Part shown: positions 29,740-37,790 of the stretch, one piece after another | Position numbering within the stretch: position 1 is the first letter of the stretch | Layout of the letters: every line of letters begins with the position of its first letter | Source of the DNA: a virus | Taxonomy: Duplodnaviria; Caudoviricetes | Virus record (IMG/VR): IMGVR_UViG_3300015370_000019 | Location: 1 to 53,503 of that record | Strand: one strand, 5' to 3' | DNA length: 53,503 nt | Made by a program: the position numbers and the translations under genes | The notes under the pieces: model-generated | Told to the model about the DNA's origin: nothing | Databases searched by the model: none | What the model saw: only the letters and a program-made list of their open reading frames with translations

Positions 29740-30294
29740 TCAGCTGACCACGCCCTTGGTGGCCACCTTGATCTCATGGGCCAGGCGCTTGGGCAACTCT
29801 CTCGAGACGAACGTCTGGAACAGCTGCTGCGTCTGATAGCGCACCATCTCGCGCGGGATGTGCGGGCCAGCCACACGCTCAACAGGGAAGCGGGCCTTGG
29901 CGACGCGCCAATATACCTCATTGTTCCAGCGAGGCACGAAGAAAGCGGACTTGAACAGCGTGCTCTTGCCGTAGGGCTTGGCCTTGACACCCTTAGCTGT
30001 CTCACGTGCACCGAAGTGGTGCAGCGATAGTGGTCGACCGTACGAGCGTATCGTAAAGCTCGGCTCAGTGCCATAGGTGGCCCGCTTCTTCAGGTTGCCC
30101 AGCTGCACCAGCTTTCCCACAGTGAGGCCAACCTGCTTCGCCAGCGTCCGCTTAACTTGGGTGAACAGTTTTTTGCCGGTGTGGTTTACCGCGCGGGCGG
30201 CGGCCCGGTGGCCGCGGTCTTCGCCCAAGGCTTTCATGGCCTGCGCCATCATCGGAACGCCATCACCTTGCCAATAGATGCGCACCACTGCCAT
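29740..30294 (-). CDS. Minor tail protein Z-like
   Basis: AAARAVNHTG, FGARET..GV, F..AF and R.P.E...GP basic pattern of gpZ. Confidence 0.75.
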   Translation of the reverse strand: MAVVRIYWQGDGVPMMAQAMKALGEDRGHRAAARAVNHTGKKLFTQVKRTLAKQVGLTVGKLVQLGNLKKRATYGTEPSFTIRSYGRPLSLHHFGARETAKGVKAKPYGKSTLFKSAFFVPRWNNEVYWRVAKARFPVERVAGPHIPREMVRYQTQQLFQTFVSRELPKRLAHEIKVATKGVVS

Positions 30295-31102: not shown

Positions 31103-31339
31103 ATGAAACAGCAAGGCAGACCAACCACCCACACTCAGACCACGTTCGCCAAGTGGATGGCGGAGATGGGCTTCACGAACGACCAGGCCGCGAACGCGCT
31201 TGGCCTTTCGCTCTCGCGGGTCAAGGATCTCAAGGCCGGGCGCTCAACGAACCCGGCAGCAGGTAGCGAACCGGACCAACGCACGCTGCTCGCCATGGCG
31301 GCAATCAAGGCCGGCGTTGAACCCTATGAGGCGGCGTGA
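31103..31339 (+). CDS. Small XRE-type HTH regulator
   Basis: FAKWMAEMGFTNDQAANALGLSLSRVKDLKAG...LLAMAAI. Confidence 0.85.
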   Translation: MKQQGRPTTHTQTTFAKWMAEMGFTNDQAANALGLSLSRVKDLKAGRSTNPAAGSEPDQRTLLAMAAIKAGVEPYEAA

Positions 31340-31674
31340 TGGACAGGATTTCTGAGCCTAACCGCAAGATTGCCAAAACCGGCGGTGAGCGTGCGGCGCG
31401 AGATAACCGCTCACGATTAGCCAACCCATACCGCAAAGGCACCCCACACTACGATGTGTGGCATGAGGCATGGGTTGCAGAAAGCGAGCGCCTCGAGACC
31501 GTTGTCAACGAAGCCGTCAGCGAGCTGGACCGCAGCGCCGCGGCCGGCAAGGTCTATGCAGCGATCATGGCCGGCATCACTAACACACGCCCCGACATTC
31601 CACCGGCAGAACGCATGCGGCTTGCCGATGCGATAGAACGCACCATGCTCGAGCGTGGCCTCATCGCCCTCTGA
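31336..31674 (+). CDS. Protein with Rmf/CrpP-like N-terminal motif
   Basis: G..AA......NPY......Y..W.EAW; overlaps the HTH stop. Confidence 0.6.
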   Translation: MMDRISEPNRKIAKTGGERAARDNRSRLANPYRKGTPHYDVWHEAWVAESERLETVVNEAVSELDRSAAAGKVYAAIMAGITNTRPDIPPAERMRLADAIERTMLERGLIAL

Positions 31675-31896
31675 GCCATGCTCCATGCGCGGGCCAAAAC
31701 CGGGTATGAGCGCAGCGCGAGTGTCTCCTTCCTGCTTTCGCACACCTCAAAACTGATGTTCGTTTATCACAGAACGAATTGTGTCCGCCGCAAGCAGGCA
31801 TGATGTGGGGTTAGTCCGCCATCCGATCACGCGGCTTCGGATCGTCTCCATACGGACACGGCCTGATTTTCAATTTTCTGCGACTCGCACCGCTGT

Positions 31897-31912
31897 TGCT
31901 CCACGTGGAACA
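31897..31912. other. parS-like site
   Basis: TGCTCCACGTGGAACA, one mismatch to TGTTCCACGTGGAACA; intergenic. Confidence 0.5.
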
Positions 31913-32106
31913 GCCGCAAAGGCCCGTATCATTGGAAACTTGCGAATTTGCGCAAATCGGCAAAGAGGCCAAAACGCATAGCTTTTTTGGCCGTAAAAAT
32001 GCGGAAATAACGCTCGATCACGCGAATATCACGCGATTGTGATCGGTTTTCTTGTGATGTTCTCTTATTGGACCTGTTTTTTCCTTGTCTGGCCCTCTCT
32101 GGCTTA

Positions 32107-32135
32107 TTGACTTAGGACTATTTTAGCCCTATATT
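32107..32135 (+). promoter_or_regulatory. Sigma70-type promoter with operator TAGGACTA-TTT-TAGCCCTA
   Basis: TTGACT-17 bp-TATATT; a near-perfect palindrome fills the spacer. Confidence 0.8.
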
Positions 32136-32140
32136 GGTAA

Positions 32141-32500
32141 GCAGAATGAGACGGCAAGCCATCCCCTGAAGCCGCAAGCTAGGCACAAGCGCCGAAGAGG
32201 TGAGGCCCGGAACCAACCGGCCCCAAGCGAAGCGAGAAAGTAAGGGACAATTGGATGCCCGAGTGAAGCGGAAGGCGAAAGCCCGGCCGATGCGAAAGCT
32301 TTGTCCTGGCCCGCTGCCTGAACGCTCACTTCAAGCTCACATGCCCAGCGACTTCGGATGCCCACCAGCAACCGGCGCGCTCACGGCGTCAGCGGCAGCT
32401 GCCCAGCGCGGGCAGCTATCGGTGGCGCTGTGCCACCAAACGAAAAGGCACCCGGTGCCCTGGTGTTTGCGCACCAGGCGGGTGCCTCACGGTCTGAACC
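32141..32500 (+). ncRNA. Candidate large structured RNA or leader, family unknown
   Basis: About 380 nt between the promoter and the next credible ATG; several helices, GAAA tetraloops, a possible pseudoknot and 11 AAGC copies. Confidence 0.55.
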
Positions 32501-32519
32501 CATATCAAGGATCTCAACC

Positions 32520-33524
32520 ATGAAGACACTTAGCACAGCACTGGCCGCTCTCGCAATCATCGCCTCCGGCTTTGGTATCGTGGCGGTTTCGACTTGGAAC
32601 AACCTTGAAATGCTGGCTGGCAAAAACATCACCATCGGTGAGTTCGGCCAGTTTTTCACGGATCTCAACTCTGTCACGGCCGTGCCCTTGGCCGTGGCGC
32701 TTTTCACCCCGGTGCTGATGGCGGCCGGGCACATGGCGCTGCGCCGCTGGCGCATCGTCATGGCTCTCTGCCTGATTGTGCCGGCCATTGGTGGCGTGGT
32801 CTTCGATCTCGCCACCTCGCTCGATCGCGTGGCCACCAATAACGATGCGATCAAGCACGAAAAGCGCAGCCACAACGCTGCGTTGGCCGCGGCAAGCGAA
32901 GCAATCACCCGTTGGGAGGATCGCCTCGCCACTGCCAAGGCCGGCATCGACAAGGAGTGCGGCGGCAAAGACCCCGCCAAGCTCACCGATGCCGGTTGGC
33001 CAAGCTGCCGCAATCACTGGCGGCAGGCAACGGCAGCGCAGTCTGCACTCGATGAAGCCCGCACTCAGCGCGCTTCGCTTGGTGCCGATGTGGTCGAGGA
33101 CTCCGGTGCCGTCATCGCCGCCGGCATGTTCAGTGGTCTTGGCGTCACCCCGGCGCTGTGGTCACGCTATAAGCCGGTGTTCCCGGTGATCTTCCTGCTT
33201 GGCGGCTCGTTTCTGGTGTCTTTCGGCTTTTCGCTGATGACGCCGGTGCGGGTCGCAACCGCTCAGCCGGCAACGGCTGCTGTGGCACGGCCGATGAAGA
33301 ACGTGACGCCAACTGCGGTGGCTCTTCCCACCCTCGAGGAGTCGGTTGTGGCGCTGGTGCGCGATGCCGGCAAGCTCAACAACGGTCAGCTCGCTGGCCT
33401 CATGGTTGAGCACCTTGGCTATGGCTCGGACGCCACCGCATCCCGCCGCGTCAAGGAACTCTGCGCCAACGGGCTGCTCAAAAAGCGGCAGGTTGGCAAA
33501 GAGGTCGAGATCGAGGTTGCCTGA
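32520..33524 (+). CDS. Multi-pass membrane protein with coiled-coil loop (Cys pair) and C-terminal winged HTH
   Basis: Three N-terminal hydrophobic helices, coiled-coil with ECGG...SC, a further TM helix, then LNNGQLA...SDATASRRVKELCANGLLKKRQVGK; RBS AAGGA. Confidence 0.75.
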   Translation: MKTLSTALAALAIIASGFGIVAVSTWNNLEMLAGKNITIGEFGQFFTDLNSVTAVPLAVALFTPVLMAAGHMALRRWRIVMALCLIVPAIGGVVFDLATSLDRVATNNDAIKHEKRSHNAALAAASEAITRWEDRLATAKAGIDKECGGKDPAKLTDAGWPSCRNHWRQATAAQSALDEARTQRASLGADVVEDSGAVIAAGMFSGLGVTPALWSRYKPVFPVIFLLGGSFLVSFGFSLMTPVRVATAQPATAAVARPMKNVTPTAVALPTLEESVVALVRDAGKLNNGQLAGLMVEHLGYGSDATASRRVKELCANGLLKKRQVGKEVEIEVA

Positions 33525-33561
33525 GCAGCCCAACACGACTTTAGAAAGTGTTGGCCATAAG

Positions 33562-33594
33562 AGGGTCGGTGCCCAGCGCACCGGCCCTTTTTTT
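33562..33594 (+). terminator. Intrinsic terminator closing the accessory transcript
   Basis: AGGGTCGGTGC-CCAGC-GCACCGGCCCT followed by a T-run. Confidence 0.85.
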
Positions 33595-33961
33595 GTCCTG
33601 AGCCCAGCCCCGGAATATTTCTTGGAATATTTGCCGCCGGTTTTGGGTGCTCATGGCGCCGGTCCTTTCGGCAATTCAGCCCAGTGCTGCCGTCAGTCGC
33701 GCGTCATGACCTTCGCGGCATGGATGCTTTCTGGTTTCCTTTACATTTTCAATTCCGCGCAATTGTATCGGCAATCCTTGCGCCAATTCCGCTTAGTTTT
33801 TAACGCTTGCGCCTCGTTTGCACATTTTCACACGTGAAAACGATAGCAATAACGGGCCTTTGACATTGTTGCATGTCATTCCGTCTTAATCTCTGGAAAT
33901 GTCGCCCAGCGCGCCTGCAACTGACGAAAACGTTGGCCGATCAACGCTGAAAACGACTTGG

Positions 33962-36115: not shown

Positions 36116-37050
36116 TAGATCACCCCCGCCCTTTCTCTAATCCGCCATGCCGCCTGCCGCTCCATCACCTCGCGCTCAATTTCCACTCTGACGCTGCCGC
36201 CAGGGCCGTTGGCGGCCGCCGTCACGATGTCGATAGCGTGGCTGTAGCGCTTGCGCGCCCATTCGTGGCTGCGCCCGCAGCGCTCGCCGAGCGTGCGCCA
36301 CGTGTAGCCCCACGATTTCCACACCACCAATTTCTGCTCCAGGTTAAGCCCGCCGGGCCGCCAGTCTTTCGGCCGGCGTGCCGGCGGGTAAAGCGACGTC
36401 AGCCAGCCCAGCGCTACGTCCCAATCGTCTCGATCGCGGCGGTTCGGCTCGAATGCGCGCGGCTCGAGCGGGGCGGCGTAGTCCCAGCGATCGCCAACGA
36501 TCTCGTGCACCGGCCAATTGATCTTGACGCCGAGCTGCACCTCGCGCACCACGCCGGGTGCGCGCGACGTCTTGAGACCGCGCAGCAGGCGGTGCTCGGC
36601 CTCGAGGCGGGAAATCGAGCCAGCCGGCGCGTAGCGATAGGGCCAATCGGTATCGGCAAGGCAGCCCGGAAGGTCGCCAACGACTTCAGGCGGCACAGCA
36701 AAGGCAGGCGACGGCTTGAGGCCGGCAACGGCTATCGGCTTCAGCGGCTGCCAGTGGGTCGGGTTGTCACGCAATGGGATGCGCTCAGGCGTCGGCCTCG
36801 AGCAGTCGATGTGGCGCCGCGCGCCGTTTTCCCACAGCCAGAAGCCCGGCACCGCCCAGCCGCGGCCAATGAGAATGGCGCGGGTGTTCTCGGCCAGCGA
36901 GCAGATGTCATATTCCTGATTTGTTGCGCCTTCGGATGCCCATTGGCCTTGCAGGCCAACATCCGGCGCCCCCGAAGCGTGACTCCTGGCCATCAGCGTA
37001 TTGCTCCCAAGACGGCCACGAGTGCGATTATCAATGCGTGCATGGCTCAC
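36115..37050 (-). CDS. DUF6362-like protein, candidate late regulator (Q-like position)
   Basis: C-terminal sigma-region-4-like HTH W..LGERCGRSHEWARKRY..AI; also ALGWL motif. Confidence 0.55.
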   Translation of the reverse strand: MSHARIDNRTRGRLGSNTLMARSHASGAPDVGLQGQWASEGATNQEYDICSLAENTRAILIGRGWAVPGFWLWENGARRHIDCSRPTPERIPLRDNPTHWQPLKPIAVAGLKPSPAFAVPPEVVGDLPGCLADTDWPYRYAPAGSISRLEAEHRLLRGLKTSRAPGVVREVQLGVKINWPVHEIVGDRWDYAAPLEPRAFEPNRRDRDDWDVALGWLTSLYPPARRPKDWRPGGLNLEQKLVVWKSWGYTWRTLGERCGRSHEWARKRYSHAIDIVTAAANGPGGSVRVEIEREVMERQAAWRIRERAGVI

Positions 37051-37790
37051 GCCTTCCCCGTTGAGCCGTAGCCCTGGTCGCCGCGCTCGGTCTCGGTGAG
37101 CTCATCAACCTCGAGCACCTCGAGGCGGTCGACGCGCTTGGGCACCAGCTGCGCGATGCGATCGCCGACGTTGACGCGAAACCGGGTGCTTGAGGTGTTG
37201 AGCAGCAGCGCAAACACCTCGCCGCGATAATCGCAATCGATGGTGCCGGGCGAGTTGAGCACGGTGATGCCGTCTTCCAGCGCCAGGCCGGAACGCGGCC
37301 GCACTTGGCACTCGAACCCTGGCGGCACTTCGATGGCAAAGCCGGTCGGAACCTTGCGGCGCTCGCCTGGCATGACCGTCAGCGAGGTGGCCGCGCAGAT
37401 GTCGAGGCCGGCGGCGCCGGCGCTCTTATAGGCCGGCAGCGGCAGCCCCTCGCCGTGGCTCAAGCGCTTGAACTTGAGCGCGGGCAGCTCATCGGTGATT
37501 TCGGCATCACCGGCGCCGGCTGTCACGGTTTCGCGGGCAACCACCGCCTCAGCCGGTGCCAGCCGCACCTCAGAGAGCGGCACCTTGATTGCTGCATTTT
37601 TGGGGTGGCTCCCATTAGGCCTCACGTGCGCCTCATTGGCGGTGAGCTTGACAACCTTTCCAAACCTCACCTCCGGGTCATCGAGGTGCTGCGCGTCAAA
37701 CGTGGTGGGGTTGCCCATCGCGTCAACGCAATAGACCACCTCATCACCATTTTTCAGTTTCTCAGCCATTGTCGGCGGTGTCCTTTCCAT
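37047..37790 (-). CDS. dut: Trimeric dUTPase with ~100-aa N-terminal extension
   Basis: All five motifs present: AGLD, RSGLA, GTIDCDYRGE, RIAQL and RGDQGYGSTG. Confidence 0.95.
   Translation of the reverse strand: MERTPPTMAEKLKNGDEVVYCVDAMGNPTTFDAQHLDDPEVRFGKVVKLTANEAHVRPNGSHPKNAAIKVPLSEVRLAPAEAVVARETVTAGAGDAEITDELPALKFKRLSHGEGLPLPAYKSAGAAGLDICAATSLTVMPGERRKVPTGFAIEVPPGFECQVRPRSGLALEDGITVLNSPGTIDCDYRGEVFALLLNTSSTRFRVNVGDRIAQLVPKRVDRLEVLEVDELTETERGDQGYGSTGKA

Follow-up and report, generated by a model that had tools for sequence, protein, structure and literature searches.

A two-domain structured RNA, probably a new regulatory RNA, in the leader of a phage membrane protein operon

What is the role of some 380 nucleotides (nt) that lie between a near-consensus promoter and a membrane protein gene and appear to encode no protein? 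The question is raised by positions 32141-32519 of the IMG/VR virus record IMGVR_UViG_3300015370_000019, a sequence of the Caudoviricetes that we analysed over its full length of 53,503 nt (53.5 kb, G+C 63%; hereafter the window). An initial annotation, made from the sequence alone, had read this interval as a structured RNA leading a membrane protein gene with a helix-turn-helix (HTH) domain. Our results suggest that the element is probably a new regulatory RNA. It is non-coding, is conserved with compensatory changes, belongs to the + strand, lies at a fixed distance from its promoter and is always tied to a membrane protein gene, and we regard it as very probable that the RNA element is real. 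We give about even chances to the fuller reading, in which positions 32148-32331 are an uncatalogued two-domain structured RNA at the transcript 5' end of an operator-bearing sigma-70 promoter, acting as a cis factor-binding leader.

The absence of a convincing open reading frame (ORF) from the interval is borne out. The ORF at 32200-32523 (107 aa) has a flat G+C content over the three codon positions (GC1/2/3 = 0.68/0.60/0.62), the downstream gene has 0.65/0.49/0.75, and real genes here have a GC2 of 0.45-0.52 and a GC3 of 0.75-0.83. The ORF has no Pfam or PHROG match, and in homologues 1- and 2-nt indels disrupt its frame. By composition, indels and family matches, then, coding-type conservation of this ORF is absent. 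The repeat counts of the initial annotation also hold. AAGC occurs 11 times in 32139-32336, which is the highest count for any 198-nt span of the window and is reached by 0 of 2000 dinucleotide shuffles (mean 3.65), and TGCCC occurs five times in the 205 nt of 32256-32460, as many as in none of 2000 shuffles. As a defining feature the AAGC repeat nevertheless fails, being unconserved among relatives: these have only 2-5 copies, and the trait they have in common is instead a purine richness of 57-65%. No known RNA family was recognised, in agreement with the annotation. Rfam 15 gives no gathering-level match across the whole window, and within 31900-32700 a search at E up to 10 returns only three matches, with 12-15 bits where the cut-offs are 50-62. 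At E up to 1 no Rfam match overlaps the leader in loci L081, L091, L093 and L094 (locus numbers are our own).

The element was found in seven distinct sequences, namely the window, L001, L002, L006 (the same as L007 and L086), L081, L082 and L085. Two diverged relatives, L096 and L103, share its architecture and the hairpin GGCGAAGCUAUGCC. The sources are alpha- and gammaproteobacterial prophages and metagenomes. The close pairs L001/L002 and L081/L085 reduce the seven sequences of the main family to about five lineages, and the two outliers are additional to these.

Comparison of these sequences leaves part of the original description standing. The interval is structured, non-coding and on the + strand, but only about 190 nt of the proposed 380 nt are conserved as one unit, at approximately 32148-32331, and this unit consists of two domains, D1 and D2; the region 32338-32445 is modular and is swapped in relatives. 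The topology was derived from separate minimum free energy (MFE) folds of both halves of all seven sequences, together with whole-length folds, and a single topology is common to all seven in the separate folds. In the window its parts are as follows.

32148-32155, + strand: invariant 5' motif GAGACGGC, 12 nt past the -10 hexamer, in 7/7 sequences; its GGC opens helix P1
32153-32259, + strand: domain D1, a long, irregular stem that P1 closes and two hairpins cap (MFE folds of seven sequences)
32257-32291, + strand: 35-nt core, identical in the window, L001 and L002
32261-32331, + strand: domain D2, a hairpin of helices P4a, P4b and P5
32277-32315, + strand: extension hairpin of D2, with the apex GCGAAAGC at 32292-99

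The 5' motif, predicted to lie near the RNA 5' end, reads UAGACGG in L103 and AAGACGA in L096. In P1, GGC(C/A), right behind the invariant GAGAC, pairs with (G/U)GCC about 100 nt downstream (in the window, GGCA at 32153-56 with UGCC at 32256-59), and the variable pair is C-G in five sequences and A-U in two, the window and L082. Inside P1 lie helices P1b, P1c and P1d, followed by a junction with P2 and P3, and the 3' strand of D1 is purine-rich. The sequences of P1b-P1d depend on the lineage: P1c is UCCC/GGGA in the window and CCUC/GAGG in L081, while P1d takes the forms GCUAGG/CCAAGC, CGCUGAG/CUCAGCG, and CCCC/GGGG or CCCG/CGGG. P2 is CGCC-GAAGA-GGUG in the window, with the GAAGA loop present in five sequences. 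P3 is GGCC.GG-AACCAA-CCGGCC in the window and across lineages reads GGCCGG/CCGGCC, GGGUGG/CCACCC or GCCCGG/CCGGGC; L082 lacks it, and in L001 and L002 it is weak. The helix arms quoted in the initial annotation were all found where it had placed them. The GGGACAA/TTGTCCT helix that it proposed is, however, kept in no relative, and its GGGA pairs with the UCCC of P1c.

In D2, helix P4a pairs GAG-N-G with C-N'-CUY (window GAGUG, 32261-65, with CACUU, 32327-31). The N/N' pair is U-A in two sequences, C-G, G-C, G.U and U.G in one each, and unpaired (C.A) in one. An AA bulge behind P4a is followed by P4b, GCG (32268-70) with CGC (32323-25), and then by an internal loop with GA-N on its 5' side and N-GAA on its 3' side. 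P5, GGC (32274-76) with GCC (32316-18), is closed in the short forms by the loop GAAGCUAU; in the window, L001 and L002 an extension hairpin of 36-39 nt, placed by Infernal, lies within the P5 loop instead. The 22-nt centre of the core, CCCGAG.GAAGCGGA.GGCGAA, is invariant in 7/7 sequences save two positions, and the invariant bases sit mainly in loops and junctions. The pairing of GAGTGAAGCG with CGCTCACTT (32261-70/32323-31), which had been described as crossing or alternative, exists, but it is neither of these: it is the conserved covarying helix P4. Since GAACGCTCACTT forms the 3' side of P4, its reading as a boxA-like signal was dropped. The two variable positions of the core are spaced 9 nt apart, yet a coding reading was likewise rejected, as that frame lacks a start codon and runs into a stop.

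A covariance model of the element (R1), built solely from L081, L085, L006 and L082, recognises the sequences left out of it, with 82.8 bits for the window, 69.2 for L001 and 54.4 for L002, against 19.7 bits for the best unrelated match. Paired cells make up 85.8% of the model alignment compared with 77.2% in shuffles, and pairs changed on both sides number 13 compared with 5.8; in each case 0 of 500 shuffles reach the observed value. Slid controls give 31-53% paired cells and at most 5 double-changed pairs. The 3' strand of P4 in L002 is mis-assigned in this alignment, its true partner lying beyond an extra insert. L001 and L002 differ by the compensatory change CGGC/GCCG versus CGCC/GGCG. 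Pairs of the G.U type occur in P2, P4a and P5; on the other strand they would be C.A mismatches, which favours the + strand RNA as the folded form.

The downstream protein is rare: a word-indexed search gives four clusters, itself included, and there are 33 matches at E up to 1e-3 among 1.84 billion representatives. Loci encoding it yielded L001, L002, L004 and L006/L007. L002 is collinear with the window (blastn), and L004 is cut at its 5' end. In L006 the homologue is 41% identical, yet the promoter and leader are the same, and a 75-aa ORF and a 28-aa membrane ORF stand between them and the homologue. An invariant-core scan of one genome per species gave eight stretches, four of them genuine: L081 from a gammaproteobacterial metagenome-assembled genome (MAG), L082 from a Hyphomicrobium MAG, L085 from a proteobacterial MAG, and L086. 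The other four (L083, L084, L087 and L088) are chance or unrelated matches. Scanning for the apex hairpin of D2 brought up L103 and, once more, the L096 contig (as L102); both L103 and L096 retain a 5'-proximal long-range P1 and a D2 that ends in UGGCGAAGCUAUGCCA. R1 had no match in 74 other phage and bacterial loci (647,151 bases) and was not found in those searched of 150 further genomes from the order of the Hyphomicrobium MAG. The window had no match among GenBank phages (by DNA similarity) or PLSDB plasmids, single-protein locus searches in viral and genome contigs gave no relative, and exact and degenerate core scans of viral contigs gave only L001 and L002, plus the chance coding matches L089 and L090. 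Two partial resemblances may be recorded. In an unrelated lower-GC phage an intergenic GCG-AAU-GGC-GAAGCUAU-GCC-CGC reproduces the P4b/P5 apex of D2 without the remainder; it is one sequence found twice (L100:10948-10967 and L101:6306-6325) and is probably due to chance, about one chance match being expected for the pattern. At L088:5935-6013, in a Solirubrobacterales MAG, two nearby copies of a palindromic unit with CCCGAGGGAAGCGGACGGCGAA-like sequence score 19.7 bits with R1, and this unit looks like a repeated extragenic palindrome rather than the leader.

The second constant feature of these loci is the promoter. The sites around it in the window are the following.

32107-32135, + strand: sigma-70-type promoter, TTGACT-17 nt-TATATT, 10/12 consensus positions
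32113-32120 and 32124-32131, + strand: imperfect palindrome inside the promoter, TAGGACTA/TAGCCCTA
32017-32036, + strand: two direct copies of ATCACGCGA, 11 nt apart, then GTGAT, about 70-90 nt upstream of the -35 hexamer and conserved in L001 and L002; candidate operator-like site
31103-31339, + strand: small HTH-like gene, 78 aa (HTH_3 E 0.012, 16 bits, cut-off 23)

The promoter deserves the description near-consensus that it had been given, and it is the sole match in 31500-33900, where 0.4 are expected. A TTGNNN-17-TA.A.T promoter precedes the element in 9/9 loci, with a 17-nt spacer in all, and an (N)AGACG motif follows 8-13 nt past the -10, again in 9/9. The inverted-repeat score of the promoter is at least 7 in seven of the nine loci, a value found in 3.4% of random 29-mers. 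The sequence of the palindrome varies from phage to phage, which would be the behaviour of operators for phage-specific repressors. A small gene lies divergent and directly upstream of the promoter in L081, L082, L085 and L096; only the L096 product exceeds the Pfam HTH_3 cut-off, and the others have sub-threshold HTH matches or none. In the window the HTH-like gene at 31103-31339 is a candidate regulator of the leader promoter. The proposal that the system is HTH-repressed thus keeps its operator-like palindrome and its small HTH-like gene nearby, while repression as such is deduced from palindromes only. Upstream of the promoter, 31940-31992 also holds a 12-nt palindrome, TTGCGAATTTGC/GCAAATCGGCAA, and a hairpin, GGCCAAAA/TTTTGGCC; together with the ATCACGCGA copies these probably serve the neighbouring HTH operon as operator and terminator sites.

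The third is the protein. The gene led by the element and its signals are these.

32507-32511, + strand: Shine-Dalgarno sequence AAGGA, 8 nt ahead of the ATG at 32520
32520-33524, + strand: 334-aa membrane protein gene, whose start codon agrees with the homologue alignment
33559-33591, + strand: intrinsic-terminator-like hairpin that closes the operon, 14 pairs and then a T run

In the 334-aa protein a long coiled coil, with two conserved Cys, is flanked by transmembrane helices on both sides, and a winged helix forms the C terminus. In its family, DUF7343 is matched in 9/15 members and HTH_24 in 8/15. The L081 protein aligns over the winged helix (hhalign probability 96.8%), the large ORF of L082 is weakly similar (probability 23%), and the L103 protein has transmembrane helices and no evident winged helix. 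A multi-pass membrane protein gene lies downstream in 9/9 loci, where other cargo varies. The initial statement that the element leads a membrane-HTH gene is thus upheld, as regards the membrane gene in all nine loci and as regards the winged helix in the family of the window and in L081. In an AlphaFold model of the window protein (mean pLDDT 76) membrane helices, a long helical hairpin (residues 79-146 and 161-187) and a winged helix (272-333) are seen. Foldseek against the PDB gave nothing with E below 0.01, and its domain-level matches are only ArsR/MecI-type winged helices. PADLOC gave only winged-helix-level matches for the protein, PHROGs only winged-helix and generic helical matches, and the Atlas only viral hypothetical clusters.

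Between D2 and the ribosome-binding site the leader consists of hairpins that differ from phage to phage.

32338-32445, + strand: variable spacer of modular hairpins
32397-404 and 32410-17, + strand: P6, AGCTGCCC with GGGCAGCT
32421-26 and 32432-37, + strand: P7, GGTGGC with GCCACC
32447-32486, + strand: double hairpin by the ribosome-binding site, preceded by AAACGAAAAGG, about 20 nt ahead of the Shine-Dalgarno sequence

P6, P7 and the long hairpin by 32446-32487 are present as quoted in the initial annotation. P6 and P7 are partly common to L001, L002 and L006, with stem sequences that differ in each. L001 has, in place of window positions 32345-32434, a 366-nt cassette that contains a small membrane ORF, and L004 carries this cassette too. 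The double hairpin has an outer stem GGCACCCG/CGGGTGCC and an inner stem CTGGTG-TTTGCG-CACCAG. It is kept ahead of the membrane gene in L001, L002, L004, L006, L081 and L085, with a stem change from CTGGTG/CACCAG to CCGGTG/CACCGG, and the inner hairpin is repeated before every small ORF in L001 and L006. The hairpins between leader and gene, like those between cistrons, are without U tails. The assembly graphs of two groundwater metagenome runs fork at precisely 32257 and 32291, with the core at 5-20x the depth of its flanks, and in run X1 one contig joins 32291 to 32516 through 506 other letters that replace 32292-32515. The forks at the core edges and the 506-letter replacement identify the segment from the core to the translation start region as a cassette exchange site, and the core depth together with the X1 contig indicates that several core-sharing phage variants co-occur in the same groundwater samples. 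The element stands at the head of a short prophage operon made up of the leader, then 0-3 small variable ORFs, the coiled-coil/winged-helix membrane protein gene and a terminator. Separately, TGCCCAGCG occurs twice, at 32341-32349 and 32399-32408; along with the fivefold TGCCC this duplication may be the trace of a cassette duplication.

The apex of the double hairpin has a distribution of its own. CYGGTG-TTWGCG-CACCRG (window 32460-32477) occurs exactly in 72 viral contigs (loci L010-L080), where its 74 matches reduce to 54 contexts by their flanks. The stem extends by at least 4 bp in 35 of these; among them a T-rich tail follows in the TTWGCG orientation in 26 and in only the opposite orientation in 5, so that the apex usually caps intrinsic-terminator-like hairpins of unrelated phages. 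The TTAGCG loop occurs on other stems nearby in L022 and L058. No Rfam family covers the apex hairpin in the 16 loci searched, and literature matches to a UUAGCG hairpin are unrelated (shRNA, HIV). The apex is also present in 3 of 401 proteobacterial genomes, where a control pattern gives 0, and enrichment in phages over bacteria is therefore not established. A resemblance of the reverse complement of the hairpin to the XerC arm of dif was considered and dropped.

How might the element act? We infer a cis factor-binding leader because the invariant bases lie in loops and junctions, because no terminator precedes the coding part in any locus, none being found behind D2, and because of the geometry of L082. 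There the first start codon follows D2 by only about 48 nt, which hold no terminator, and the element is therefore necessarily the 5' untranslated region of the first gene. Covarying helices with invariant loop and junction nucleotides, the generic marks of a riboswitch aptamer, are both present. The leader would act in cis, its invariant internal loops and junction binding a factor. This could be a small ligand or a protein, such as one supplied by the host or the winged helix that the operon itself encodes. Its binding would set the level at which the downstream membrane protein operon is expressed after transcription initiation, and the hairpin cassettes, including the double hairpin by the ribosome-binding site, would serve as modules for processing or stability and for translation initiation. 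Several points weigh against this. The factor is wholly hypothetical, and no expression platform, either a terminator or an anti-Shine-Dalgarno sequence, was found. Anything from about 48 to about 500 nt, whole cistrons included, lies between the element and the start codon that it would regulate, a spacing atypical for riboswitches that occlude a ribosome-binding site. Folding of the single sequence shows only a modest gain over shuffles and is alike on both strands (z -2.70 on the + strand, -2.39 on the - strand). The family has only seven sequences and two relatives, about six lineages in all, and the covariation of the helices is suggestive but statistically unproven, because the sequences are few, the alignment is fitted to the model, the structure comes from one member and the shuffle ignores relatedness. 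Finally, the sequencing runs that contain the stretch include no RNA run; those examined are DNA contigs, and the transcription start is a predicted one, near 32142-32146. A more specific version of the cis leader, in which the invariant loops are the binding site for the protein encoded behind them, through its winged helix or as a whole at the membrane, so that RNA and protein form one unit, seems to us rather improbable. If true, it would be a phage ribonucleoprotein switch that links a membrane or envelope signal, such as superinfection or envelope stress, to operon expression, and we know of no described counterpart in phages of an RNA-plus-membrane-protein switch of this kind.

The models that act at the RNA level, be they a cis leader, a trans-acting RNA, a put-type RNA or an antitoxin or ribonucleoprotein partner, are not discriminated by the tests run, and we can only rank them, with the cis leader first. 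The element could instead be cut from the leader to become a stable trans-acting immunity or regulatory RNA, with P4 CI RNA, P1/P7 c4 and Brt as models. This explanation, which we place second, is unlikely, although it has points in its favour in the dedicated near-consensus promoter with its fixed 5' end and in a compact fold that is independent of downstream sequence. The 35-nt core, identical among co-occurring phage variants, is also what a trans-acting determinant of specificity or immunity would show, and the Brt RNAs, of about 200 nt, highly expressed and ahead of HTH genes, offer a precedent (PMC5387305). Yet neither a terminator nor a recognisable processing site lies behind D2, the element is single-copy in the window, and there is no match to the C4 family of Rfam. 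Complementarity between the leader and the translation start region is no better than in shuffles, with duplex energies within about 1.5 standard deviations of shuffled targets in 7/7 loci. A put-type RNA, as in phage HK022, would bind its own RNA polymerase and bring about processive antitermination, with read-through of hairpins and terminators. An early-type, operator-controlled promoter directly upstream in 9/9 loci, strong hairpins between cistrons throughout the operon, and the occurrence of the apex of these hairpins on terminator-like hairpins in other phages are all in keeping with such a role. We nonetheless think it quite unlikely: the intercistronic hairpins are without U tails, so that there is no terminator to overcome before the membrane gene, the strong terminator at the operon end is presumably obeyed, and put RNAs are of about 70 nt with two simple stem-loops.

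The chances are no better that the element is an RNA antitoxin, or the direct RNA partner, of a toxic membrane protein, in the manner of type I or III systems or of the OLE/OapA ribonucleoprotein. Its strict linkage to a multi-pass membrane protein gene in 9/9 loci, and the module's own promoter and terminator, which make it look like a moron or defence cassette, speak for this explanation. The toxicity of the protein is hypothetical, however, with neither PADLOC nor Foldseek going beyond the matches given above, and the leader has no antisense complementarity. Tandem repeats of the kind seen in type III antitoxins are missing as well, TRF detecting no array in 31900-32600 with a minimum score of 30; the sponge, antitoxin and OLE-like ribonucleoprotein roles of the initial annotation are not supported. 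Conservation at the DNA level, as operators, replication-origin iterons or a recombination site, would accommodate the genuine over-representation of AAGC, the position of the invariant core as a recombination junction between variants and the DNA-binding winged helix of the partner protein. It is very unlikely given an AAGC count that is not conserved, the lack of direct or tandem repeats, and compensatory changes and G.U pairs that fit a single-stranded fold of the + strand. Translation of ORF 32200-32523, or of an extension of the downstream gene from 32358, can be entertained in so far as open frames exist; but with the non-coding codon-position composition, the lack of family matches and the frame-breaking indels described above, and with homologues of the downstream protein that all begin at the 32520 methionine, a protein-coding cause of the conservation is hardly credible.

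The cis leader, which we prefer, belongs to a + strand block set into genes of the other strand. Structural genes, among them one for a tail-completion/Neck1 protein at 29740-30294, occupy the - strand between about 50 and 30497, and - strand genes resume from 33962 onward, a dUTPase at 37047-37790 among them. The block between consists of the HTH-like gene at 31103-31339, a 112-aa ORF, a gap of about 430 nt, the promoter, the 380-nt leader, the 334-aa gene and the terminator-like hairpin. The genetic partner of the element is clear, a phage-specific membrane-anchored winged-helix family, as is its regulatory setting, an operator-bearing promoter beside a small HTH-like gene. This setting provides a testable way into the role of the membrane proteins in lysogens, be it exclusion, defence or the sensing of induction. 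The invariant RNA core and the conserved hairpin by the ribosome-binding site also bracket the site at which small-ORF cassettes are exchanged between co-occurring phages.

Several described systems resemble the element in part. Phage leader RNAs such as nut, put, c4 and CI have each revealed a distinct control of transcription or immunity. The put RNAs of HK022 are cis-acting structured RNAs just downstream of early phage promoters that act on terminators. The element likewise stands right behind an early-type phage promoter, but put is much smaller, and here there are no terminators between leader and gene on which to act. P1/P7 c4 and P4 CI RNA are prophage RNAs from the untranslated leader of the operon that they control, and they work by antisense pairing within the same transcript. 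The element shares their place in an untranslated prophage leader, whereas it shows no antisense complementarity (7/7 loci) and no C4 match by cmscan. OLE RNA, of about 600 nt, is found in Firmicutes, is in Rfam and is linked to the membrane protein OapA; the likeness lies in the genetic linkage of a structured RNA with a membrane protein, and the difference is that no OLE match occurs here and that the partner proteins are unrelated. The RNase III processing hairpins of T7 and the PeSL cassettes of the T4 type are irregular hairpins between cistrons that flank exchangeable small ORFs. They recall the CCGGTG-loop-CACCGG hairpin before each ORF in L001 and L006 and the cassettes that differ between variants, although typical RNase III substrates have longer stems.

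The closest described arrangement is that of Brt and Trp in Bartonella henselae, which we compared by description (PMC5387305). The Brt RNAs are 194-203 nt long, highly expressed and located 10-18 nt upstream of poorly expressed HTH genes. They have extensive predicted structure and belong to a plastic, horizontally acquired, prophage-bearing region of an alphaproteobacterium, and they are proposed there to act both as a leader, of riboswitch or terminator-like type, and as a small RNA (PMC5387305). The two systems have in common a structured RNA of about 200 nt directly upstream of a gene for a DNA-binding protein in a prophage setting. They differ in that the Trp proteins, as described there, are small soluble XRE proteins whereas the winged helices here are membrane-anchored, and in that Brt is reported in that text to be restricted to Bartonella (PMC5387305). 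The 15-nt core strings of the element have no match in the searchable literature, and its novelty is judged from the literature search and Rfam only. On that basis the element is an RNA family without a catalogue entry, within the known kind of structured phage leader RNAs and with an unusual partner, and it adds a further uncatalogued fold to the leader RNAs of phages.

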